Below are positions 1,049 through 62,774 of a DNA stretch of 64,000 bases, one piece after another. The DNA comes from Bacteroidota bacterium (GTDB taxonomy: Bacteria; Bacteroidota; Bacteroidia; UBA4408): the NCBI GenBank assembly GCA_016721765.1, contig JADKHO010000004.1:800409-864408 (forward strand), written 5' to 3'. The translations under genes were made by a program, and so were the position numbers. The stretch's first letter is position 1, and each line of letters begins with the position of its first letter. The notes beneath the pieces were generated by a model. The model saw nothing but the letters and a program-made list of their open reading frames with translations. It was not told the DNA's origin and did no database searches.

Positions 1049-2434
1049 ATGAGTTTGAACGAAGAAATAGTAAAACCAAATATTAGGGAACTGCTGGAGG
1101 CGCACGATGGGGTGGCTTTGGAAGTTGCGCTAAATTCGCTCTTGCCGGATGAATTGGTTGCTATTATCAACGATTCAAATGAAAGCGACCGGTTACATAT
1201 TTTTAATTTACTCGCTCCAAAATTAGCTGCAGATACCTTTGAATTTTTGGATTTATCGGAACAGGAAGAAATACTGAAAGCCTTGCCGAATTTCAAAAAA
1301 GCCAGTATCCTAAATGAAATTTCACCTGATGACCGCACCAAATTTTTAGAAGAATTACCCAGTGAGGCGGTTAAAGAATTATTGAAATTATTGTCCCCTG
1401 AGGAACGCACAGTTACACTTTCCTTATTGGGTTATCCCGAACACAGCGTGGGTCGATTGATGACTCCCGATTACATTGCGGTGAAGCAGCATTGGACAGT
1501 TGAAAAAGTATTGACCTACATCCGCAAAAGAGGAAAATATACCGAGACAGTAAACATTGTTTACATCATCGACGACAACGGAAAACTCATTGACGACATT
1601 CGCATACAAGAGTTTTTATTTGTTTCGCCGGAGAAGAAGGTGAGTGAGTTGATGGACAATAAATTTATTGCCCTAAGCGTTAATAATGATGAAGAAAGTG
1701 CCATTGTAGAGTTCCGGAAAAACGATCGTGTGGCGCTGCCTGTAACGGATGTGGAAGGTATTTTGCTGGGAATTGTTACCATTGATGACGTCCTCACCTT
1801 AGCGCAAGAAGAAGATACCGAAGATATCCACAAAATGGGGGGTACCGAGGCTTTGGAAGAACCTTATATTGAAACCCCATTGATGATGTTGGTGCGTAAG
1901 CGCGCTATTTGGTTAATTGTATTATTCATCGGAGAAATGCTTACTGCCACTGCTATGGCCTTCTTTCAAGGTGAAATTGAAAAAGCAGTTGTATTGGCCT
2001 TGTTTATTCCTTTAATTATTTCGAGTGGTGGAAATTCGGGTTCCCAAGCAGCAACATTAATTATTCGTGCTATGGCATTGGGTGAAATCACCATAAAAGA
2101 TTGGTGGCGAGTGTTACGTAGAGAGCTTTTGTCAGGTTTAATGTTGGGTGGGATTTTAGGTTTGATTGGATTTATAAGAATTGCTGTTTGGTTTAGTATA
2201 ACCGGAGCCTACGGGCCACATTGGTTTCCGCTTGGCCTAACTGTAGGTTGTTCATTGGTTGGAGTTGTAATGTGGGGAACAATATCGGGTTCAATGTTAC
2301 CCATTTTTTTAAAAAAAGTAGGATTTGACCCTGCAGTATCTTCTGCACCATTTGTGGCAACATTAGTGGATGTTACCGGACTATTAATCTATTTTAGTTG
2401 GGCGTATATTTTTTTAAAGGGAACGTTACTATAG
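1049..2434 (+). CDS. mgtE: Magnesium transporter MgtE
   Basis: 461 aa with an N-terminal MgtE_N region, tandem CBS-like region, and a C-terminal 5-TM domain containing the GGNSGSQ motif characteristic of MgtE. Confidence 0.9.
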   Translation: MSLNEEIVKPNIRELLEAHDGVALEVALNSLLPDELVAIINDSNESDRLHIFNLLAPKLAADTFEFLDLSEQEEILKALPNFKKASILNEISPDDRTKFLEELPSEAVKELLKLLSPEERTVTLSLLGYPEHSVGRLMTPDYIAVKQHWTVEKVLTYIRKRGKYTETVNIVYIIDDNGKLIDDIRIQEFLFVSPEKKVSELMDNKFIALSVNNDEESAIVEFRKNDRVALPVTDVEGILLGIVTIDDVLTLAQEEDTEDIHKMGGTEALEEPYIETPLMMLVRKRAIWLIVLFIGEMLTATAMAFFQGEIEKAVVLALFIPLIISSGGNSGSQAATLIIRAMALGEITIKDWWRVLRRELLSGLMLGGILGLIGFIRIAVWFSITGAYGPHWFPLGLTVGCSLVGVVMWGTISGSMLPIFLKKVGFDPAVSSAPFVATLVDVTGLLIYFSWAYIFLKGTLL

Positions 2435-2437
2435 ATG

Positions 2438-2462
2438 TGGTGATTAGCTGATTAGCTAATTG
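2438..2462. repeat. Second copy of TGATTAGCTGATTAGCT immediately after the mgtE stop
   Basis: gtgattagctgattagctaattg read directly. The 17-bp core matches the one at 942-958. Confidence 0.75.
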
Positions 2463-2504
2463 TTGATTTGTTGATTTATAAAGTTATTGAATTGTTTAAG
2501 ACTT

Positions 2505-2760
2505 ATGTCCTCCTGAGCGGAGTCGAAGGGGGGTTTTTGAGATAGTAAATTTACCATGTCCTCCTGAGCGGAGTCGAAGGGGGGTTTTTGAGATAGTAAA
2601 TTTACCATGTCCTCCTGAGCGGAGTCGAAGGAGAGTTATTGAGATACTAACTTTAGCATGTCATCCTGAGCGGAGTCGAAGGGGGGTTATTGAGTTAATA
2701 GGTTTTTGAGATAGTAAATTTACCATGTCCTCCTGAGCGGAGTCGAAGGAGAATTGTTGA
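2505..2760. repeat. Intergenic tandem repeat, 5 units of about 51 bp (one unit is 67 bp with an insertion)
   Basis: Unit atgtcctcctgagcggagtcgaaggggggtttttgagatagtaaatttacc starts at 2505, 2556, 2607, 2658 and 2725. The 5' core (atgtcMtcctgagcggagtcgaagg) is nearly identical between copies and the 3' halves drift. Confidence 0.85.
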
Positions 2761-2808
2761 ATAAAAGAAAAATTGATTTTGAAAATAAAACTGAATACAA
2801 TTTTTACA

Positions 2809-4197
2809 ATGAATAGAGGAGTTGCCTTTTTTGCAATCCTGCTTCTTAATTCCTTATTCCTAAATCCTTCGATTGCCCAACCTCGTCCTAAAAAAGAAAT
2901 TCCGCTTACGCGTATTCTTTTTGTTTTTGATTGCTCTTTAAGTATGGTGGGAAAATGGGAAAGTGCTACCAAAATGGATGTATCAAAAAGAATCTTAATG
3001 CAAACCATGGACAGCCTTCAAAAGCTCGATAATGTGGAGGTGGCTCTACGCATGTATGGCCATCAATCGCCGCTTCAGCCAGAGCGCAATTGCAAAGACA
3101 CCAAATTGGAAGTTCCTTTTTCGAAAAATAATTTTGCACAAATAAAAAATAAAATAAAACTCGCTCAACCTAAAGGTACAACACCTATTGCATATTCATT
3201 AGAGCAGTCGGGTGCTGATTTTCCGACCTGTGCCGATTGCCGTAATATTATCATTTTAATTACCGATGGAGAAGAAGAATGCGAAGGCGACCCTTGTGCT
3301 GTTTCGGCTGCTTTGCAAGCTAAGGGAATTGTGTTAAAACCATTTGTGATTGGAATTGGACTCGATGATAATTTTGCTAAAACCTTTGAATGCATCGGTA
3401 AATATTTTGATGCTACCAACGAAAAATCATTTCAATATGCCATGGGCATTATTATTTCGCAGGCTTTAAACTCTACCACTGCTCAGGTAAACTTGTTAGA
3501 CATCAGCGGTAAACCCACCGAAACCAATGTGAACATGACTTTTTACGACATGCATACAGGTCAAATAAAATACAATTACATCCATACCATCAACAACAAA
3601 GGCAACCCGGATACCTTACCCTTAGACCCTTTACCTACCTATAAAATGATTGTGCATACGGTTCCTCCGGTTCAAAAAGACAGCATCGAACTAATTCCCG
3701 GAAAGCACACCATCATCGCGCTTGACGCCCCACAAGGTTATTTAAATTTAAAAACGGCTGGCATTAACGACTATAAATCGCTTCAATTTATTGTGCGCAA
3801 AAAAGGAGAAATGGCTACACTAACCGTGCAGGATGCTAGCAAAACAGAAAAGTATTTAGTCGGAAAATATGATTTGGAAGTACTCACTTTACCACGCATG
3901 CTTATTAGCGATGTAGACGTATCCCAAAGTAAAACTACCAGTGTGCAAATTCCCCAACCCGGTATTGCCAACATCTTGATGAGTGGCGCAGGATATGGAA
4001 GTTTATATGTGGAAGAAAAAAATAAACTAAAATGGATTTACAACATTCCCGAAAACTCCACGCGAGAAACATTGGTGCTTTTGCCGGGTAATTATCGACT
4101 GGTATATCGCCCTAAAAGCGCCAAGGAAAGTATTTATACCATTGAAAGAGAATTTAAAATTGAGTCGGGAAGTTCGGCTTCTGTTAAAGCTTTTTAA
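2809..4197 (+). CDS. Secreted von Willebrand factor type A (vWA) domain protein
   Basis: Signal peptide MNRGVAFFAILLLNSLFLNPSIAQ, then a vWA fold with a MIDAS DxSxS motif (FVFDCSLSM). The ORF track begins at 2773; the internal Met at 2809 in front of the signal peptide is the more likely start. Confidence 0.7.
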   Translation: MNRGVAFFAILLLNSLFLNPSIAQPRPKKEIPLTRILFVFDCSLSMVGKWESATKMDVSKRILMQTMDSLQKLDNVEVALRMYGHQSPLQPERNCKDTKLEVPFSKNNFAQIKNKIKLAQPKGTTPIAYSLEQSGADFPTCADCRNIIILITDGEEECEGDPCAVSAALQAKGIVLKPFVIGIGLDDNFAKTFECIGKYFDATNEKSFQYAMGIIISQALNSTTAQVNLLDISGKPTETNVNMTFYDMHTGQIKYNYIHTINNKGNPDTLPLDPLPTYKMIVHTVPPVQKDSIELIPGKHTIIALDAPQGYLNLKTAGINDYKSLQFIVRKKGEMATLTVQDASKTEKYLVGKYDLEVLTLPRMLISDVDVSQSKTTSVQIPQPGIANILMSGAGYGSLYVEEKNKLKWIYNIPENSTRETLVLLPGNYRLVYRPKSAKESIYTIEREFKIESGSSASVKAF

Positions 4198-4215
4198 AAA
4201 TAGAAATTACAACAT

Positions 4216-5169
4216 ATGAAAAAATACACTTACACCGAGAAAAAAGACACCCGTTCAGGGTTTGGCGCAGGTTTGCATGAATTAGGAAAAAGCAATCCAA
4301 AAGTAGTAGCCTTGTGTGCCGACTTAACCGGCTCTTTAAAAATGGATGCTTTTGCAAAAGATTTTCCGGAGCGTTTCTTTCAGGTAGGAATTGCAGAGGC
4401 TAACATGATGGGCATGGCAGCAGGTATGACCATTGGCGATAAAATTCCATTTACAGGAACCTTTGCTAATTTTAGCACCGGCAGAGTATATGACCAGATT
4501 CGCCAATCGATTGCCTACTCCGATAAAAATGTAAAAATTTGTGCTTCACATGCCGGATTAACCTTAGGAGAAGATGGTGCCACCCACCAAATATTGGAAG
4601 ACTTGGGGATGATGAAAATGTTACCAAATATGGTGGTCATAAATCCTTGTGATTACAATCAAACCAAAGCAGCTACAATTGCCATTGCCGAGCATCACGG
4701 TCCGGTTTACTTGCGTTTTGGACGCCCAACCGTTCCTGTTTTTACACCAGCCGATCAAAAATTTGAAATCGGAAAAGCAGTGATGCTAAATGAAGGAACT
4801 GACGTAAGTATTTTTTGCACCGGTCACTTGGTGTGGAAAGCCATTGAAGCCGGAGAGCAATTGGAAGCCTTAGGAATAAATGCTGAAATAATTAACATTC
4901 ACACCATAAAACCACTGGATATTGAAGCCGTTTTAAAATCGGTTCGAAAAACAAAATGCGTGGTAACAGCTGAAGAGCATCAATTAAATGGTGGCTTAGG
5001 CGACAGCATTGCGCAATTGCTTTGCAGAGAATTACCGAGCCCCATGGAAATGGTAGGCGTAAACGATAGTTTTGGTGAAAGTGGAACGCCGGATGAACTG
5101 ATGGTGAAATATGGATTGGATGCAAAAAATATTGTAACAGCGGTTCAAAAAGTAATTAGTAGAAAATAA
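4216..5169 (+). CDS. Transketolase, C-terminal (pyrimidine-binding / C-terminal domain) subunit
   Basis: 317 aa. Motifs FQVGIAEANMMGMAAGM and HAGLTLGEDGATHQ match the transketolase central pyrimidine-binding domain. It lies on the same strand as tkt-N at 91-951 but is separated from it by two genes. Confidence 0.85.
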   Translation: MKKYTYTEKKDTRSGFGAGLHELGKSNPKVVALCADLTGSLKMDAFAKDFPERFFQVGIAEANMMGMAAGMTIGDKIPFTGTFANFSTGRVYDQIRQSIAYSDKNVKICASHAGLTLGEDGATHQILEDLGMMKMLPNMVVINPCDYNQTKAATIAIAEHHGPVYLRFGRPTVPVFTPADQKFEIGKAVMLNEGTDVSIFCTGHLVWKAIEAGEQLEALGINAEIINIHTIKPLDIEAVLKSVRKTKCVVTAEEHQLNGGLGDSIAQLLCRELPSPMEMVGVNDSFGESGTPDELMVKYGLDAKNIVTAVQKVISRK

Positions 5170-5287
5170 ATCAATACTGTGTAAAGCTTGTAATTACTGC
5201 ATTTTAAGTAATTGTCATACACAAATTACAAGCCCAAATTATTTCCTTAATTTTGCAGGAAAACTTGAAAATAATCAATTCAAAAAA

Positions 5288-6424
5288 ATGAAAGTTTATT
5301 TAGATAATGCAGCTACCACTTCCATCGATCCGGAAGTAATTGAAGCCATGTTGCCGGTGATGCAGCACCAATTTGGAAATCCCTCTTCGATTCATTCCTT
5401 TGGCCGACAAACTCGCGCTGCACTCGAAACTGCGCGTAAAAGTGTTGCCAAATTATTGAACACTTCACCTTCTGAAATATTTTTCACATCCGGCGGAACC
5501 GAAGCAGATAACATGGCCATTCATGGGAGCATTTATGATTTAGGAATTGCCCATGCAATCACTTCCAAAATTGAACACCATGCTGTTTTACACACACTCG
5601 AATCGTTAGAAAAACTAGGCAAGATAAAATTGAGTTTTGTAAACATCGACTCAAAAGGGGTGGTGGATTTAACCCATTTAGAAGAACTTTTAAAAACGAA
5701 TCCGCGCACCTTTGTTTCCTTGATGGAAGCAAATAACGAAATAGGAAACTTACTTCCTTTAAAAGAAGTGGGAGAATTGTGTGAAAAGTACGATGCTATT
5801 TTTCATTCGGATACCGTGCAAACAATGGGGCATTATGTACACGATTTACAAGCTATAAAAATACACTTCATTACTTGTGCAGCCCATAAATTTCATGGCC
5901 CAAAAGGTGTTGGCTTTTTGTATGTAAATTCTAAGATTAAGATTAATCCTTTAATACATGGAGGCTCACAAGAGCGCAACATGCGTGGGGGAACCGAAAA
6001 TGTGCATGGAATTATTGGGCTAGCTAAAGCACTCGAAATTGCTTATCGCGATATGGCTGCGCACCAAAAGCACATTCAAGAAATTAAGAGTTATATGATT
6101 AACAAGTTGGAACAAGAAATTCCGGGCGTTTCATTTAATGGTACCGCCAAAAACAATTCCTTGTACACGGTGTTAAATGTTCACTTCCCACCTACCGAAA
6201 ATGCTGAAATGCTGCTTTTTAATTTAGATATAATGGGCATTGCAGTATCAGGAGGCAGTGCTTGCACTTCCGGCAGTAATCAGGGATCGCATGTGTTGCG
6301 TGGGTTGGGTGTGGATCAAAATCGCCCTTCGATTCGCTTTTCATTTTGTAAGAACACCACTAAAGAAGAAATCGATTACACGGTAGAAAAATTAAAAGAA
6401 ATGTTTTTAGTTAAAGTAAATTAA
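5288..6424 (+). CDS. Cysteine desulfurase family protein (class V aminotransferase, NifS/IscS-like)
   Basis: 378 aa. N-terminal VYLDNAATT and a PLP-lysine region (FITCAAHKFHGPKGVG) typical of class V aminotransferases and cysteine desulfurases. Confidence 0.85.
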   Translation: MKVYLDNAATTSIDPEVIEAMLPVMQHQFGNPSSIHSFGRQTRAALETARKSVAKLLNTSPSEIFFTSGGTEADNMAIHGSIYDLGIAHAITSKIEHHAVLHTLESLEKLGKIKLSFVNIDSKGVVDLTHLEELLKTNPRTFVSLMEANNEIGNLLPLKEVGELCEKYDAIFHSDTVQTMGHYVHDLQAIKIHFITCAAHKFHGPKGVGFLYVNSKIKINPLIHGGSQERNMRGGTENVHGIIGLAKALEIAYRDMAAHQKHIQEIKSYMINKLEQEIPGVSFNGTAKNNSLYTVLNVHFPPTENAEMLLFNLDIMGIAVSGGSACTSGSNQGSHVLRGLGVDQNRPSIRFSFCKNTTKEEIDYTVEKLKEMFLVKVN

Positions 6425-6426
6425 GG

Positions 6427-6951
6427 ATGAAAAAGAAAGACGCTACAGCAGAAGTTCCGGAGTTAAAAAAATATTTTGACAAGGAAAATTACAGCACCAT
6501 CATTGTTGGAAAAGAAGAAGAACAGGAGGAAACCGTTAAGGATAAAATTGCAGCGGTGATGCAACTTTTGAGCAGCAAAGAAACTAAAGAACTGAAACAC
6601 GACACACTCAAGATTTTAAAAGAGCAAAATGGTTTGGACATGCTTTTAAAAGCCATCACCAAAGCCAAAAATCCTATCATAAAGCAAAATCTTGTAGCCG
6701 CCTGTTGGGAATCCGGTCTGGATTGTTCAAAGCACCTCAGTTATTTTGTAGACATTGCCCTAGCGGGAGATTTGAATATGTGTATTGAAGCTATGACCGT
6801 AGTGGAAGAAATGCCGGGACCTTTTGATTTAGATGAATTAAAAAGCAATATCACTAAGGTGGAGGAAGGGATGAAAACCTTTGGGAAAGAGGACAAGGGC
6901 GCGCTATTGGATCAATTGCTAAATATACTACAAACATTTGCGCAAGTTTAA
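6427..6951 (+). CDS. Hypothetical acidic cytoplasmic protein
   Basis: 174 aa ORF starting 3 nt after the preceding CDS, with no recognisable motif. It is followed by a strong terminator. Confidence 0.5.
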   Translation: MKKKDATAEVPELKKYFDKENYSTIIVGKEEEQEETVKDKIAAVMQLLSSKETKELKHDTLKILKEQNGLDMLLKAITKAKNPIIKQNLVAACWESGLDCSKHLSYFVDIALAGDLNMCIEAMTVVEEMPGPFDLDELKSNITKVEEGMKTFGKEDKGALLDQLLNILQTFAQV

Positions 6952-6964
6952 ATTTATTTTTCTC

Positions 6965-7005
6965 TGTAAAAAAAAAGAGCTGAACAGAATTGATTCAGCT
7001 CTTTT
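6965..7005 (+). terminator. Rho-independent terminator
   Basis: aaaaaaaaagagctgaacagaattgattcagctcttttttttg: a 7-bp stem (gagctga / tcagctc) followed by a T8 run. Confidence 0.7.
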
Positions 7006-7078
7006 TTTTGATTTGAAACAAGACAAAAATCATAGTAAAAAGCATTAATCTTCGTACTTTCGTGGTTTCAATAACAAT

Positions 7079-8245
7079 ATGAAAAAAACTACTATAATAG
7101 ACCTAATCAACACCACAACTATTGATACACGACTTAAGCAAATTGCTGAAAAAGTAATAGCAGGCGAGCGCGTTTCATTTGAAGATGGACTAGTGCTTTA
7201 CGAAAAAGGGGAACTTGGATTTCTAGGCACTTTGGCAAATTATATCCGCGAAAAGAAACATGGAGATTATACTTATTTCAACCGCAATTTTCATATTGAG
7301 CCTACCAATATTTGTGTGTTTGATTGTAAATTTTGCTCTTATTCGCGCCTGTTGAAAAACAAAAACGAAGGCTGGGAATTGAGTGAAGATGAAATTTTAG
7401 ATTTGGTTAGAAAATATGATGGAAAACCGATCACAGAAGTGCATATTGTAGGCGGTGTGCATCCCAAAATGGGCTTGCATTATTTTGCCGGATTAATAAA
7501 AAAAGTAAAAGAAATCCGTCCTGATATTCATGTAAAAGCCTTTACAGCCGTGGAGTTGGATTATATGTGCAAAAAAGCAAAAGTATCTTATGAAGAAGGC
7601 TTGCGCATCTTAAAAGAGCATGGTCAGGGTTCTTTACCCGGTGGTGGTGCTGAAATTTTTGACGAGCAAATTCGGGCACAAATTGCCGGAGATAAATGTA
7701 CCTCGGCAGAATGGCTCGAAATGCATGAAACGGCTCATAAATTAGGATTGCCTTCGAACGCAACAATGTTGTATGGGCATGTTGAATCCTATGCGCATCG
7801 CGTGGATCACATGGAACGCTTGCGAAAATTGCAAGATAAAACAGGTGGATTTAATACGTTTATTCCATTAAAGTTTCGTAACAAAGACAATCAAATGTCG
7901 CACTTAGCTGAAGTTTCGGTGGTGGAAGACTTAAGGAATTATGCCATTTCCCGCATTTACCTCGACAATTTTGCGCACCTAAAAGCCTATTGGCCAATGA
8001 TAGGAAGAACTACCGCTCAGCTTTCGCTTTCCTTTGGAGTGGACGACATTGATGGCACTATTGACGATTCCACAAAAATATACACCATGGCCGGTTCCGA
8101 AGAGCAAAATCCTGCTTTAACAACGCCGCAATTGGTGGAATTGATAAAACAAGTAAAGCGTCACCCGATTGAACGCGATACGCTTTATAATGTGGTGACA
8201 GATTACTTGAATGTTGATTTTAGCAAAGAAGAAGCATACGCTTGA
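7079..8245 (+). CDS. Radical SAM enzyme of the MqnC/MqnE/CofH family (putative menaquinone biosynthesis via futalosine)
   Basis: 388 aa with a CxxxCxxC cluster (CVFDCKFCSY) near the N-terminus and an overall length matching the MqnC/MqnE/CofH group. The specific member is not resolvable by eye. Confidence 0.65.
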   Translation: MKKTTIIDLINTTTIDTRLKQIAEKVIAGERVSFEDGLVLYEKGELGFLGTLANYIREKKHGDYTYFNRNFHIEPTNICVFDCKFCSYSRLLKNKNEGWELSEDEILDLVRKYDGKPITEVHIVGGVHPKMGLHYFAGLIKKVKEIRPDIHVKAFTAVELDYMCKKAKVSYEEGLRILKEHGQGSLPGGGAEIFDEQIRAQIAGDKCTSAEWLEMHETAHKLGLPSNATMLYGHVESYAHRVDHMERLRKLQDKTGGFNTFIPLKFRNKDNQMSHLAEVSVVEDLRNYAISRIYLDNFAHLKAYWPMIGRTTAQLSLSFGVDDIDGTIDDSTKIYTMAGSEEQNPALTTPQLVELIKQVKRHPIERDTLYNVVTDYLNVDFSKEEAYA

Positions 8246-57985: not shown

Positions 57986-59251
57986 ATGGCGCGCACACTT
58001 TGGATTACCCTTATTTCTTTATTTTTTTTTAGCAACAATTTGTTAGCTCAGCTCGATACAACTGAAACTGCCCGTCAGTTGAGTTATATTCATAAGTACG
58101 CTGAAGCTGATGCACTGCTTACTGCATTCGAAAAAACACATCCCAACGATATTAATGCTGTACGATTACATGCACAAATTTTATATTGGATGAAAGATTA
58201 TTCTGCTGCGCTTAATTTGTGTTCCTCTTATTTGAAAAACAATCCTGAATGGCATTTTTTAAAATTAGATTATGCCCGAATGCTTTATGAATTGCAGCAG
58301 TGGAAAAAAGCGAAAGTCGTTTTAATTGAATACCAGGTCGCTGGAAATTCAAACATTGAAGCAAAAAATATGCTTGCTACAATTGCCTATTGGCAAGGTA
58401 AAACCAAGACCTCTGAAAAACTTTTTAATGCTGTATTAAATTATTATCCAACAAATGAGTGGGCAAAAAACTATTTGAACGAAATCAAAAATGCCAAAGC
58501 GCCTTATGCAAAATTAACATCGTGCTACAGCAGCGATACTCAACCCATGTCGGCCTTGCATGCAGGCATTGAAACTGGTGTTTATCGTTCGCATTTGCTT
58601 GCGCCTAAATTTACTATGGAATGGCAAAAAGCTGATTCCGGAAATAGTTCAGCAACTGGCTACTCCAGCGAAATTTCGAACAAGTTTTTCTTTAGTGGCA
58701 TAAAAACAGAAATTCAATTAAGTGCTGGAATAGTGACCCCATTGGCAACAAATTCAATACATGGCATAGGAACTATTGAGGTAAAAAATCAGTTCCACAA
58801 AAATTTTTCTATCTCGCTCTGCGTTGCACGAAAAAACTATCAATACACGCTTTCCAACTTTAGCACTGCCATCATGTATACAGATTATGCCGCAACAATT
58901 TCCTTTTTCAAAGAAAAAATAGGCAGTGGCAAAACAGCTTATACGTTTCAGCAATTCGACGATAACAATTCTGTTCAACAGTATTATGCCTGGTTGCTTT
59001 CACCTGCGCTTCGCCTTTCAAAATTTGAATTTTATTTGGGATATAATTTTAATTACTCGAGCAGCCAATACAATCGCTATAATTTAACCACAACGCCTTT
59101 GCAAGCCATTGTGCAGTTTGACGAATCCGGAAAAATACCGGCTGCATACTCACCCTATTTCACTCCACAAAATCAACAGATACACTCCCTCCTGGCAAAT
59201 GTAATTTTTACTACCGGCAAAAAGACAAGTATTGCATTAAATGCAAATTAA
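57986..59251 (+). CDS. Outer-membrane TPR + beta-barrel protein (PgaA/BcsC-like exopolysaccharide export component), apparently truncated by an in-frame TAA
   Basis: Signal peptide MARTLWITLISLFFFSNNLLAQ, then about 170 aa of TPR-like helices and a beta-strand-rich C-terminal half. The reading frame continues for 83 sense codons after the TAA at 59249-59251, out to 59500, with a beta-barrel-like sequence ending ..LNLTYRF. Confidence 0.6.
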   Translation: MARTLWITLISLFFFSNNLLAQLDTTETARQLSYIHKYAEADALLTAFEKTHPNDINAVRLHAQILYWMKDYSAALNLCSSYLKNNPEWHFLKLDYARMLYELQQWKKAKVVLIEYQVAGNSNIEAKNMLATIAYWQGKTKTSEKLFNAVLNYYPTNEWAKNYLNEIKNAKAPYAKLTSCYSSDTQPMSALHAGIETGVYRSHLLAPKFTMEWQKADSGNSSATGYSSEISNKFFFSGIKTEIQLSAGIVTPLATNSIHGIGTIEVKNQFHKNFSISLCVARKNYQYTLSNFSTAIMYTDYAATISFFKEKIGSGKTAYTFQQFDDNNSVQQYYAWLLSPALRLSKFEFYLGYNFNYSSSQYNRYNLTTTPLQAIVQFDESGKIPAAYSPYFTPQNQQIHSLLANVIFTTGKKTSIALNAN

Positions 59252-59483
59252 GCAGTAGATGCAAAAGCGGAAAGCCCTTATCTCTATTTTGATAACAATG
59301 AAAACAATAAGTTAATAATTGTGCACGATTACTATTCGCAAAAATATTCCCCTCTCGAATTAAGTGCAAACCTCAAGCTTAGGCCAACAATTAAGTTCGC
59401 GATAGAGTTAACTTACAAATACCAAAAAGCATTTTATTTTGAGCAACATTCCGCCTTCCTTAATTTGACTTATCGATTTATTA

Positions 59484-61088
59484 ATGGCAAAGGACGATAA
59501 GAACTTATGGACTTTTCGTGAGGCGAAAAAAGTTAGCCCAATGGCTCGCTTCCTGCTAATTGTGCTGGTAATTGCAGGCTTTATTTCCGTGATAAGGCTT
59601 GCCAACTGGTGGTTTCGAGAAGAACACGTTGCCAATTTGGGATTATTTATTTTATTGTCGGCAGTATTTTGGTATGGGATTCTTCGCTTGCTACTAATTT
59701 GGACGAATTACCTGGCTGTAAAAAAACCTGAACCTATGCCCACTCCTGCTGGATTGCGAGTTGCCATTTTTACAACCAGCTCTCCCGGTGAGCCCCTTAG
59801 CATGTTCGAAAAAACATTAGAAGCTTGTGCAAATATCACCTATCCACATACTACCTATTTGTTAGACGACACACAAAATCCCGAATTTAAAGCTTGTGCC
59901 GAAAGGCATGGTGCAGTGTGGCTTGAGCTTGTAGGATTGCCGGGTGCAAAAGCAGGAAAGGTAAACAAAGCACTGTCGTTAACTACCGAAGAATTTGTGT
60001 TGGTATTGGATCCCGACCATATTCCCTTTCCCAATTTCTTGGATGAGGTGCTTGGATTTTTTAACGATGAAAAAGTGGGATATGTGCAAGTAGCACAAGC
60101 CTATTACAATCAATACCGCTCCTTCACCGCAAAGGGAGCAGCACAACAAACATATGGCTTTTACGGACCTACTCAAATGGGATTATTTGGAAGAAACTGT
60201 GCCGTTGCAATTGGCGCAAATTGCACCTTTCGGCGGAAAGCATTAGAATCAGCAGGTGGTCACGGAATTGGGCTGGCAGAAGATTTAATTACTGCCATTC
60301 GTATTCATGCCGAAGGATGGAAATCCATTTATCATCCGGTAATCGTGAGCCGTGGATTAGTTCCCGAAGACTTTGGCTCCTTTTGTAAACAACAATTAAA
60401 ATGGGCGCGTGGCGTGCATGAAGTGTTGTTTGCTGAAGTGCCCCGGCTTTTTAAAAAACTATCCTTCTGGCAACGCATATCTTATAGTACAATTGGAACT
60501 TACTATTTGGTAGGTACAACAACACTCATTTATATGCTCATCCCGTTTTTGTATTTGCTATTTGGGGTATTGCCGGCCAATATGCGTTTTATTGAGTTTA
60601 TTGAATTCGGAATTCCAGTTACACTTATTTCCATTTTAATTTATCTTTATGTGCAAATTTGGATGTGTCATCCAAAGGTAGAGCGCGGCTTGCACTGGAA
60701 TGGGATAATTTTAAAATTTGCCACTTGGCCGGTTTTTTTCTTAGGATTTTTGCTTTCTTTAGTGGATGGTGAAATTCCATACATACCCACAGCCAAGCAA
60801 GCTGTAACAGGTAAAGTATCGCCCTTTGCACGACCATTGCTGGCACACATTTTACTTTTTGTAATAACCGTTTTCTACACGTTGTATCAGCGAAGATACA
60901 TTGTTGCCGAAACCACTTTGGTAAAAACAGCTGAGCAAACCTGGGGCATGATTGCTTTTGCAAGTATTTCAGTTTTACTAGCTTTTGGTGGGATGTATGC
61001 TGTAATAGAGTCTAAAAGGCTTAGCGCAGAAGATCCTTGGGAAAAGATTGATGTATCCAAATTAGAATCAAAAAGGAAAGAATCATGA
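59484..61088 (+). CDS. Processive family-2 glycosyltransferase (cellulose-synthase-like / PgaC-like beta-glycan synthase)
   Basis: 534 aa. N-terminal TMs, then a GT-A domain with the D, DxD (VLDPDH) and Q(Q/R)xRW (QQLKWARG) motifs, and several C-terminal TMs. The start could also be the internal Met at 59541. Confidence 0.8.
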   Translation: MAKDDKNLWTFREAKKVSPMARFLLIVLVIAGFISVIRLANWWFREEHVANLGLFILLSAVFWYGILRLLLIWTNYLAVKKPEPMPTPAGLRVAIFTTSSPGEPLSMFEKTLEACANITYPHTTYLLDDTQNPEFKACAERHGAVWLELVGLPGAKAGKVNKALSLTTEEFVLVLDPDHIPFPNFLDEVLGFFNDEKVGYVQVAQAYYNQYRSFTAKGAAQQTYGFYGPTQMGLFGRNCAVAIGANCTFRRKALESAGGHGIGLAEDLITAIRIHAEGWKSIYHPVIVSRGLVPEDFGSFCKQQLKWARGVHEVLFAEVPRLFKKLSFWQRISYSTIGTYYLVGTTTLIYMLIPFLYLLFGVLPANMRFIEFIEFGIPVTLISILIYLYVQIWMCHPKVERGLHWNGIILKFATWPVFFLGFLLSLVDGEIPYIPTAKQAVTGKVSPFARPLLAHILLFVITVFYTLYQRRYIVAETTLVKTAEQTWGMIAFASISVLLAFGGMYAVIESKRLSAEDPWEKIDVSKLESKRKES

Positions 61089-61218
61089 CAAAATTCAAAT
61101 TAATTACCTACCGCATTGGCATTACGGTTGCAGCAATTGCACTCGGAATTTTTCTGGTGTTATTACTCACCTACATGGGACAAAATCATCCGGTCCAATT
61201 GATGATGCTTTCACAGCC

Positions 61219-62262
61219 ATGGGAAATGGTGTGGCTACCATCGAACACAAATTAATTTTGAATGAACGGGAAGATACACGCACCAAAACATTGGCTTGGT
61301 TTAACTCTTACCGCAACGATGCTGAAAAGTTGGCCAATTCAGATAAACTCCTGTTTGGGGCCTATGACGATGACTTTTCTGAATCCTATCAAAGTGTGGT
61401 AAACTTGGAAGATTCATTGGGTACACATTTTCCGGTAATTCACATTTATACCGCTTGGGGTAGCAAGCCCGAAGAAGAATTTCCAATGACTCAAACTAAA
61501 GCCATTTTGGATATTGGCTCAGTTCCGGTAATCACTTGGGAGCCCTGGTTGGCTGATTTTGATAAAGCCGATTTTCCTAAGATTCCGGATGTGGACAAGC
61601 GCGATAAGAACGGTTTAAAATCAATTGCCAAAGGCGATTACGATGCCTATATTACTACATGTGCAGCAGCTGCAAAAGAGGTTGGAAAATTATTTTTTGT
61701 GCGTTTGGGCCACGAAATGAACGATCCATATCGCTATCCATGGGGCCCACAAAACAATAAACCTATTGATTTTATTCATGCTTGGCAGCATGTGGTGAGC
61801 TTATTTAAAAAAGCAGGTGCCACAAATGTTATTTGGATTTGGTCGCCGCACCCTGCTTATGCAAACTATGATGCCTATTACCCGGGCGATGGTTACGTGG
61901 ATTGGGTGGGTGTTGGAACCTTGAATTATGGTACTGTAGCAACTTGGAGCAAGTGGTGGAGCTTTGATGAAATTTTTGGAAATTATTATGCACAACTTTC
62001 TAAATTTAAAAAGCCCATTATGATTACTGAATTCGGAAGCTTAGGAGTGGGTGGAAACCGCGCTAAATGGTACAAAGATGCCTTAACAGATATGCCTATA
62101 AAATATCCTGAAATAAAATCGGTCATCTTTTTTCACTGCAAAAATGATAATACCACTACTTACAAAGCACTCGATTGGTATATTAAAGATGATACACTAA
62201 CCTTAAGTGCAATTAGAAATGCGACACATAATTTTTCGCCTTTGATATTGTCGCGGGAGTAA
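61219..62262 (+). CDS. Clan GH-A glycoside hydrolase, GH26-like (beta-mannanase / beta-glycanase family)
   Basis: An acid/base motif FVRLGHEMND and a nucleophile motif MITEFGS, plus the WIWSPHP region typical of GH26. The ORF as called has no signal peptide. A TM-anchor ORF overlaps it upstream in another frame (see findings). Confidence 0.65.
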   Translation: MGNGVATIEHKLILNEREDTRTKTLAWFNSYRNDAEKLANSDKLLFGAYDDDFSESYQSVVNLEDSLGTHFPVIHIYTAWGSKPEEEFPMTQTKAILDIGSVPVITWEPWLADFDKADFPKIPDVDKRDKNGLKSIAKGDYDAYITTCAAAAKEVGKLFFVRLGHEMNDPYRYPWGPQNNKPIDFIHAWQHVVSLFKKAGATNVIWIWSPHPAYANYDAYYPGDGYVDWVGVGTLNYGTVATWSKWWSFDEIFGNYYAQLSKFKKPIMITEFGSLGVGGNRAKWYKDALTDMPIKYPEIKSVIFFHCKNDNTTTYKALDWYIKDDTLTLSAIRNATHNFSPLILSRE

Positions 62263-62297
62263 GCCAATTTTGCGAAAACGAATAAGTACGCTGCATA

Positions 62298-62774
62298 TTC
62301 GCTCAAATCTTGCGAGTATAAGCTATTCCCAAGCCTCCGACTACTTCAAATTCGCTCGCATCTTGTGAGTGTAAGCTATACCAAAGCCTCCGGCTACTTC
62401 AAATTCGCTCAAATCTTGCGAGTGTAAGCTATACCAAAGCCTCCGGCAACTTCAAATTCGCTCGCATCTTGCGAGTGTACGCTATACCCTTGCCTCCGGC
62501 AACTTCAAATTCGCTCGCATCTTGCGAGTGTAAGCTATAACCAAGCCTCCGGCAACTTCAAATTCGCTCGTATCTTGCGAGTGTAAGCTATACCCAAGCC
62601 TCCGGCAACTTCAAATTCGCTCGTATCTTGCGAGTGTAAGCTATACCCAAGCCTCCGGCAACTTCAAATTCGCTCGCATCTTGCGAGTGTAAGCTATTCC
62701 CAAGCCTCCGGCTACTTCAAATTCGCTCGCATCTTCCGAGTGTAAGCTATTCCCAAGCCTCCGGCTTAATACTT
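62298..62774. repeat. Intergenic tandem repeat, 9 units of 53 bp
   Basis: Unit ttcgctcgcatcttgcgagtgtaagctatacccaagcctccggcaacttcaaa starts at 62298 and recurs every 53 bp, with point variants. Each unit contains a small hairpin ctcgca-tct-tgcgag. Confidence 0.9.

Follow-up and report, generated by a model that had tools for sequence, protein, structure and literature searches.

A predicted membrane-anchored GH26 glycanase gene split by a single-base frameshift in a putative polysaccharide operon of a Bacteroidota bacterium

Two adjacent open reading frames (ORFs) in a stretch of 64,000 nucleotides from a Bacteroidota bacterium (contig JADKHO010000004.1, positions 800,409 to 864,408; hereafter the window, whose own numbering is used below unless a related locus is named) are the halves of one gene, predicted to encode an N-terminally anchored glycanase of about 392 amino acids (aa). 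The enzyme belongs to glycoside hydrolase (GH) family 26, and its gene is the third of a conserved operon, found in nearly all related loci long enough to contain it, in which it follows genes for a tetratricopeptide repeat (TPR) protein (about 500 aa, with a predicted signal peptide) and a family 2 glycosyltransferase (GT2; about 530 aa). What separates the two halves is a frameshift of an ordinary kind, caused by the loss of one base in a short homopolymer. It represents a recently broken or mis-sequenced gene and no new gene arrangement.

The upstream ORF (61085..61255, + strand) has 56 codons and reads MTKFKLITYRIGITVAAIALGIFLVLLLTYMGQNHPVQ (in full, MTKFKLITYRIGITVAAIALGIFLVLLLTYMGQNHPVQLMMLSQPWEMVWLPSNTN). 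Its ATG (61085-61087) shares bases with the TGA stop codon of the GT2 gene (61086-61088) in the form of ATGA. This ORF carries a transmembrane (TM) helix, with a Kyte-Doolittle 19-residue maximum of 2.71 at residues 11-29, preceded by three Lys/Arg residues. The downstream ORF (61219..62262, + strand) has 347 codons, lies in the -1 frame relative to the first and overlaps it by 37 nt. No hydrophobic N-terminus was detected in it on the same scale, the maximum being 1.02. The frame of the downstream ORF is open from the preceding stop codon at 61063-61065, and no ATG, GTG or TTG occurs in this frame between that stop and 61219. A c-aaaa run is located at 61181-61185, the four adenines themselves (A4) occupying 61182-61185. 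An earlier note on this DNA, made from the letters alone, had described the same ORF positions, ATGA overlap, frame open upstream without a start codon and caaaa run, all of which agree with the sequence and the ORF list.

Searched with the 347-aa ORF, a protein collection gave 2355 homologues. The best 120 of these 2355 are single proteins of 370-404 aa, whose N-termini extend about 40-45 residues beyond that of the window ORF. The closest, P0001, is a protein of 392 aa, 87% identical, that begins MTKFKLITYRIGIVIAAIALGIFLVLLLTYMGQKSSGPIDDAFTAMGNGV. Around the junction P0001 reads ..LLLTYMGQKSSGPIDDAFTAMGNGV, corresponding to the anchor frame of the window as far as Q33 (..YMGQ) and to the GH frame of the window from K34 onwards (KSSGPIDD; ..HLHGT-KSSGPIDDAFTAMGNGV in the window). 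The DNA alignment of the window with L081, the contig that encodes P0001 (alignment A1), contains a single 1-nt gap, which falls in the A run: GGGAC-AAAATCATCC in the window faces GGGTCAAAAATCATCA in L081, that is, CAAAAT against CAAAAAT, or A4 against A5. The single-base change in the caaaa run that the earlier note had judged most plausible is thus the one found. When one A is inserted as a conceptual repair, the gene encodes a protein of 392 aa, which can be aligned with its orthologues over the whole length.

We compared the repaired protein by tblastn with 83 related loci, comprising 80 GTDB species genomes and 3 contigs of the closest proteins. It crosses the junction in one frame in all 83. 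The alignment is single in 82 loci, 77 of which are aligned from residue 10 or earlier, and the remaining locus holds two full-length copies. A split layout with two ORFs was found in none of the 83, nor did any of them show a small membrane protein next to a separate cytoplasmic GH, the arrangement that would have spoken against the proposed fusion. The orthologues are single proteins of 380-400 aa, and the proposal that the anchor ORF and the GH26 ORF make up one frameshifted gene is borne out. A chance pair of ORFs is excluded because both frames match one continuous orthologous protein and the match switches from one to the other exactly at the A run. This is the pattern of a frameshift-disrupted gene: adjacent ORFs in two frames, one continuous orthologue and a definable indel at the switch.

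The locus with two copies, L037, belongs to a metagenome-assembled genome (MAG) of Anditalea sp. Its tandem full-length anchored GH26 copies, at 2196-3344 and 3712-4845, are 51% and 49% identical to the window protein.

A functional split, in which a small membrane peptide and an independently translated cytoplasmic GH26 would both be made, can be imagined, since the in-frame ATG at 61219 would give a 347-aa product with the whole catalytic domain. However, the Met encoded there is an internal residue in orthologues (A-M-G-N-G, with V or I in more distant ones), and the invariant G37-P38 juxtamembrane motif described below would be lost. Furthermore, the last 23 codons of the 56-codon ORF are out of frame and show no conservation; as judged from these comparisons they are a by-product of the frameshift and encode no conserved protein. 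Together with the uniform single frame of the 83 relatives, this makes a functional split vanishingly improbable.

In-frame stop codons do occur within the orthologous GH26 gene in 2 of the 83 genomes, both of them MAGs. L043 (GH at 5884-6999) has two, one of which falls at a nearly invariant Tyr, and L046 (GH at 5733-6860) has one. These stops could reflect recurrent loss of the hydrolase or MAG errors. No internal stop was found in the GT2 and outer-membrane genes of the relatives, L043 and L046 included, so that the hydrolase may be the component that the module can most easily do without.

The A run invites two further explanations. The first is recoding, by programmed -1 ribosomal frameshifting or transcriptional slippage at the A run, with the full-length anchored enzyme still being made and the 56-aa product serving as a regulated alternative. 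The required shift is indeed -1 and the site is A-rich (CAA AAU); if tRNA-Asn slipped from AAU to AAA, the product would read ..GQNSSGP.., which is close to ..GQKSSGP.. in orthologues. On the other hand, the zero-frame codons GGA CAA AAU CAU contain no X XXY YYZ heptamer, and the predicted fold of the 100 nt at 61176-61275 is unremarkable (z = 0.16, 107 of 200 shuffled sequences being as good, in a calculation that does not model pseudoknots). Rfam and tRNA scans of the window found nothing, and a shift at this position is conserved in none of the 83 relatives. A run of four adenines is also far shorter than the tracts known to cause transcriptional slippage. With neither heptamer, downstream structure nor conservation, a programmed frameshift was rejected as far as sequence can exclude it, and we regard recoding in general as extremely unlikely. 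The earlier note had placed it last, behind a homopolymer sequencing error and a genuine pseudogene, and this ranking of the three causes was reasonable.

The second is reversible phase variation, a contingency switch in which A4 would turn a polysaccharide-processing enzyme off and A5 would turn it on. A change of homopolymer length at the 5' end of a surface-polysaccharide gene is found at the usual place for such a switch. Nevertheless, runs of 4-5 nt are well below the lengths that slip at useful rates, relatives have an ordinary Lys, Gln or Glu codon at this position and no extended tract, and slippage could not undo the premature stop in the operon's outer-membrane gene (see below). We regard phase variation, too, as extremely unlikely.

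The assignment of the protein to GH26, already suspected in the earlier note, can now be refined. The 347-aa ORF matches the Pfam GH26 profile PF02156 with 31.8 bits (cut-off 20.2, E 1.2e-7), and the same family is precomputed for nearly all homologues. No named NCBIfam model for the GH protein was found. Its best sequence match in the PDB is CtLic26A, the GH26 lichenase (E 2e-34, residues 101-380), whereas GH26 mannanases score E 1e-5 or worse. Both catalytic residues are present in the window: the acid/base Glu211 in GHEMN (codon 61714-61716) and the nucleophile Glu316 in ITEFG (codon 62029-62031). The two motifs are invariant in 80 of 80 sequences, and their glutamates align with those of HEAN and AEFA in CtLic26A. 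A structural model was made with AlphaFold2 for the orthologue P0001 in place of the window protein (87% identical; predicted local distance difference test score 84.6). Residues 2-34 and 39-77 form two helices in it, the second of them long, and a (beta/alpha)8 barrel follows, with the eight alternating strand and helix elements of the clan GH-A fold. The top 29 matches of this model in Foldseek are GH26 structures, if a chain of 6ZPL that derives from CtLic26A is counted. Among PDB entries the nearest neighbours of the model are CtLic26A structures, with a target-normalised TM-score of 0.87 at 30% identity, as compared to about 0.6 for mannanases. By profile, modelled fold and catalytic residues, the protein is therefore a bona fide GH26 enzyme of a rare lichenase-like branch, nearer to CtLic26A than to the GH26 mannanases.

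The part of the protein around the lesion is also conserved. On either side of the TM helix, R10 ahead of it and G37-P38 immediately behind it (P0001 numbering) are invariant in 50 diverse homologues (alignment A3). The latter two belong to an invariant juxtamembrane K-S-x-G-P motif, located in the part of the GH frame upstream of ATG 61219. Since G37-P38 is invariant, the segment cut off by the frameshift matters. The conservation of R10 and G37-P38 suggests that the anchor is no passive tether and takes part in a specific interaction next to the membrane, possibly with the synthase. Elsewhere in the gene, residue 193 of the repaired protein is Cys (TGT, 61660..61662, + strand); the codon is TGG in L081, and Trp is found in all other sequences compared. 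Apart from W193C, no change private to the window falls at a conserved GH column, and W193 is invariant in alignment A3. Residue 193 aligns with a Met of CtLic26A and is therefore no catalytic residue.

The GT2 encoded upstream is intact, as the earlier note had stated. It aligns in a single frame to 82 loci and has no private change at 146 conserved columns. Its best match in the PDB is BcsA (E 1e-30), which is also its best NCBIfam match; against the NCBIfam CelA model it scores 163 bits, the cut-off being 699. The motifs DD, KAGK[IV]N, DPDH, AED and QQLKW can all be recognised. BcsA and other processive GT2 synthases carry QxxRW. In the QQLKW signature (60390-60404, GT2 residues 303-307) Lys replaces the canonical Arg family-wide, being invariant in 78 of 78 aligned family members. 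Neither a PilZ domain nor another cyclic di-GMP domain was found by Pfam and NCBIfam in the 534-aa GT2, where a divergent site could escape, and no cyclic di-GMP receptor domain was found among the neighbouring genes of L084 and L085.

The first gene of the operon is interrupted as well. Its translation has a sole internal stop at codon 422 of 504, a premature TAA at 59249..59251 (+ strand) where the closest orthologue, in L081, has TAT (Tyr). The in-frame stop pointed out by the earlier note is thus real. The residue following it is Ala in the window and Gly in 62 of 65 orthologues. The orthologues, of about 500 aa, are in one frame and uninterrupted at that codon in all 78 loci with a match. 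Termination there would cost the protein its final 82 residues and with them the aromatic signature at the C-terminal end; the ..F with which some orthologues end resembles the end signature of outer-membrane proteins. No PDB sequence match was found for the presumed barrel part. The coordinates of the operon genes and of the parts of the GH26 gene are given in Table 1.

Table 1. Positions in the window of the operon genes and of the segments of the frameshifted GH26 gene.
Feature	Position	Strand	Evidence or remark
TPR outer-membrane gene, first of the operon	57986..59500	+	Signal-peptide-like N-terminus, TPR Pfam matches, C-terminal region of ~330 aa (presumed barrel), one in-frame TAA
BcsA-like GT2 synthase, 534 aa, intact	59484..61088	+	Pfam GT2 and Cellulose_synt; directly upstream of the GH26 gene
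Authentic 5' part of the GH26 gene	61085..61183	+	Codons 1-33, MTKFKLITYRIGITVAAIALGIFLVLLLTYMGQ; ~94% identical to P0001 residues 1-33
Lesion site, one A missing (A4; A5 in the closest orthologue)	61182..61185	+	DNA alignment A1; rest of the gene thrown into the -1 frame
GH26 gene remainder, -1 frame, codons 34-392 and stop	61183..62262	+	K-S-x-G-P motif, long helix, (beta/alpha)8 domain
Out-of-frame tail of the 56-codon ORF, NHPVQLMMLSQPWEMVWLPSNTN followed by a stop	61184..61255	+	Orthologues read KSSGPIDDAFTAMGNGV instead, the window's other frame

In a subset of the related loci the operon is enlarged; L085, for instance, has an NTP-transferase gene and two epimerase/dehydratase genes between GT2 and GH26 (5231-7994). 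In the closest relative, L081, a GalE-like epimerase gene (3391-4080) follows the GH gene. With such nucleotide-sugar genes in the operons of relatives, some lineages may make a polymer other than a plain glucan. Of the features of a synthase-dependent system, a membrane-embedded processive GT2 with its catalytic signatures is present, as is a polymer-cleaving enzyme, the GH26 with an N-in signal anchor, which adjoins GT2 in nearly all related loci and which its predicted topology places in the periplasm. A cyclic di-GMP receptor was not found. From its sequences, the operon would work like a Bcs-like synthase-dependent exopolysaccharide system, without being a Bcs operon or equivalog; we prefer "Bcs-like" because domain searches revealed no cyclic di-GMP receptor and the operon is not a Bcs equivalog. 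A limited literature search, which included an operon survey (PMC7112194) and is not proof of novelty, found no description of a GT2 and GH26 module in Bacteroidota. The combination of a TPR protein of the presumed outer membrane, a BcsA-like GT2 and an anchored GH26 is thus a conserved and apparently uncharacterised Bacteroidota module.

In the complete GH26 product, a Lys/Arg-rich tip would lie in the cytoplasm and be followed by a single signal-anchor TM helix, the conserved segment next to the membrane and a lichenase-type (beta/alpha)8 domain facing the periplasm. If it acts as BcsZ, PslG and AlgL do, such an inner-membrane-tethered hydrolase would trim or clear the nascent GT2 polymer in the periplasm. 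With one A lost from the A5 run, translation from the real start should end after 56 codons, 33 of them authentic and 23 out of frame, and the product would be a membrane peptide devoid of the catalytic domain. The catalytic domain, whose catalytic residues are intact in the remaining sequence, could be produced only from the internal ATG at 61219; lacking both anchor and export signal, it would stay in the cytoplasm, away from its substrate. As written, the GH26 gene is predicted to be functionally dead. The export function of the operon would be lost too, through the nonsense codon in the outer-membrane gene.

Beyond the operon, the 600-nt gap between the GH26 stop codon and a heme O synthase gene is filled by a tandem array (62297-62765, + strand, 469 nt). 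It consists of 8.8 copies of a 53-nt unit with 93% matches and no indels, the consensus being ATTCGCTCGCATCTTGCGAGTGTAAGCTATACCCAAGCCTCCGGCAACTTCAA, and each unit holds a short inverted repeat. The array was found neither elsewhere in the window nor in 85 fetched loci, and it has no Rfam match; in L081 the place behind the GH gene is taken by the GalE-like epimerase gene.

What caused the loss of one A? We consider it probable that the A4 allele is a real and very recent mutation, in an operon whose export function would be lost as well, and we favour this over a sequencing error. The same operon has suffered a second lesion, independent and of a different type, the TAT to TAA substitution in the outer-membrane gene, and the TGG to TGT change at the invariant Trp of the GH gene is a third point change that supports a real mutation. 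No other broken gene was found across the 64-kb window, where ORFs of 1697, 1506 and 1020 aa are intact; the scanned pairs of abutting or overlapping ORFs on the same strand all resolve to complete unrelated Pfam domains (TsaE, PurS, PlsY, GATase, GNAT, etc.). Lesions that are confined to one operon fit relaxed selection better than random error.

If the A4 allele were instead a sequencing or assembly error, the true genome would have A5 and an intact 392-aa gene, the homopolymer having been undercalled, and the TAA in the outer-membrane gene might likewise have arisen from a local error. The lesion does sit in a homopolymer. However, A5 is a short run, and the window contains 405 homopolymers of 5 nt, 164 of 6, 61 of 7, 16 of 8 and 6 of 9 (247 of 6-9 nt, about 650 in all) without another frameshift; an error process that shortened the A5 run should also have affected some of the 247 longer ones. 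Furthermore, the lesion in the outer-membrane gene is a substitution, which a homopolymer error cannot produce, and two random errors within one 4.3-kb operon of the 64 kb are unlikely.

Several observations nevertheless weigh against a real mutation. The remaining GH gene is intact, with both catalytic residues kept, and no acceleration of its rate was seen, either in a relative-rate test or in the ratio of nonsynonymous to synonymous divergence (dN/dS). The latter is about 0.03 for the GH gene against L081, a value with little power for a recent event, dS being saturated against all available relatives. Lineage-specific substitutions in the GH gene are fewer than those of its sister with each of three outgroups (8 versus 15-16 with two of them, 12 versus 13 with the third), and its deviations at conserved columns are fewer than in the median relative; those of the outer-membrane gene are slightly above the median and within the range. 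The constrained pattern of the GH gene fits an error as well as a very recent mutation. In addition, the 53-nt tandem array begins 35 nt past the GH stop codon and could have lowered local assembly quality, giving rise to clustered errors. A cell that kept an active synthase but had lost both exporter and hydrolase should suffer harm, and a genotype of this kind is not quite what one would expect to persist in nature. Independent sequence of the organism confirming the A4 allele was not found in the collections searched: DNA scans of metagenomes for the junction, with A4 or A5 allowed (patterns of 43-44 nt and 22-23 nt), gave no match, nor did an exact-sequence search for a second assembly using the GT2 and response regulator of the window.

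The signs of relaxed selection are therefore mixed, with W193C and the nonsense codon in the outer-membrane gene on one side and, on the other, the absence of rate acceleration and the small number of changes at conserved sites. Since neither the GH nor the outer-membrane gene shows accelerated divergence, any inactivation must be very recent. The suggestion in the earlier note that the locus may be decaying holds insofar as three point lesions are present, but "decaying" is too strong a word for genes that have not diverged faster than their relatives. On balance, sequencing error is the less likely of the two, a possibility to be kept in mind, and all causes other than mutation or error are, taken together, very unlikely at best.

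One could also speculate that the operon has been repurposed. The exporter and the hydrolase would have been shed and the synthase, unchanged at all 146 conserved sites, kept under selection for making a periplasmic or cell-bound beta-glucan, for example an osmoprotectant or envelope polymer; or A4/A5 might act as a reversible switch; and the module would be an undescribed exopolysaccharide system widespread in Bacteroidota. We see little chance that this is so.

Returning to the probable case of a recent mutation, the operon would be one more surface-polysaccharide operon knocked out by point lesions, which is biologically ordinary. An annotation should join the two ORFs into a single GH26 gene marked as frameshifted and treat the operon as non-functional in this strain as sequenced. 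The wider value of the locus lies only in its pointing to the conserved TPR, GT2 and anchored GH26 module of the Bacteroidota.

Among known enzymes, CtLic26A, the GH26 lichenase module of Clostridium thermocellum endoglucanase H (PDB 2BV9, 2BVD, 2CIP, 2VI0), resembles the window GH in sequence and in the fold modelled for its orthologue, and both catalytic glutamates align (HE-x-N and x-x-E-F). CtLic26A is, however, secreted, cellulosome-borne and degradative, whereas the window protein is predicted to be TM-anchored, has a conserved extra region of about 70 aa and is encoded in a biosynthetic operon; a likeness at about 30% identity does not fix the specificity of the window enzyme. As regards function, the closest parallels are PslG (GH39) of the Pseudomonas aeruginosa Psl system and BcsZ (GH8) of cellulose operons, which are, as the window GH would be, periplasm-facing hydrolases in operons for polysaccharide synthesis and export. 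PslG has an N-terminal membrane anchor. Both belong to families without sequence relationship to GH26, and Psl is Wzx/Wzy-dependent, not synthase-dependent. With systems of the BcsA-BcsC type (cellulose; also PgaA/C, AlgK/E/8 and PelB), the window operon has in common a processive BcsA-like GT2, a TPR-containing partner presumed to lie in the outer membrane and an operon hydrolase. It differs from them in the absence of BcsB, in a GT2 without PilZ, in QQLKW in place of QxxRW and in a CelA score far below the cut-off. Finally, the window case is indistinguishable from ordinary frameshift pseudogenes and homopolymer indel errors: an indel in a short homopolymer splits a conserved gene, and a neighbouring gene has an internal stop.

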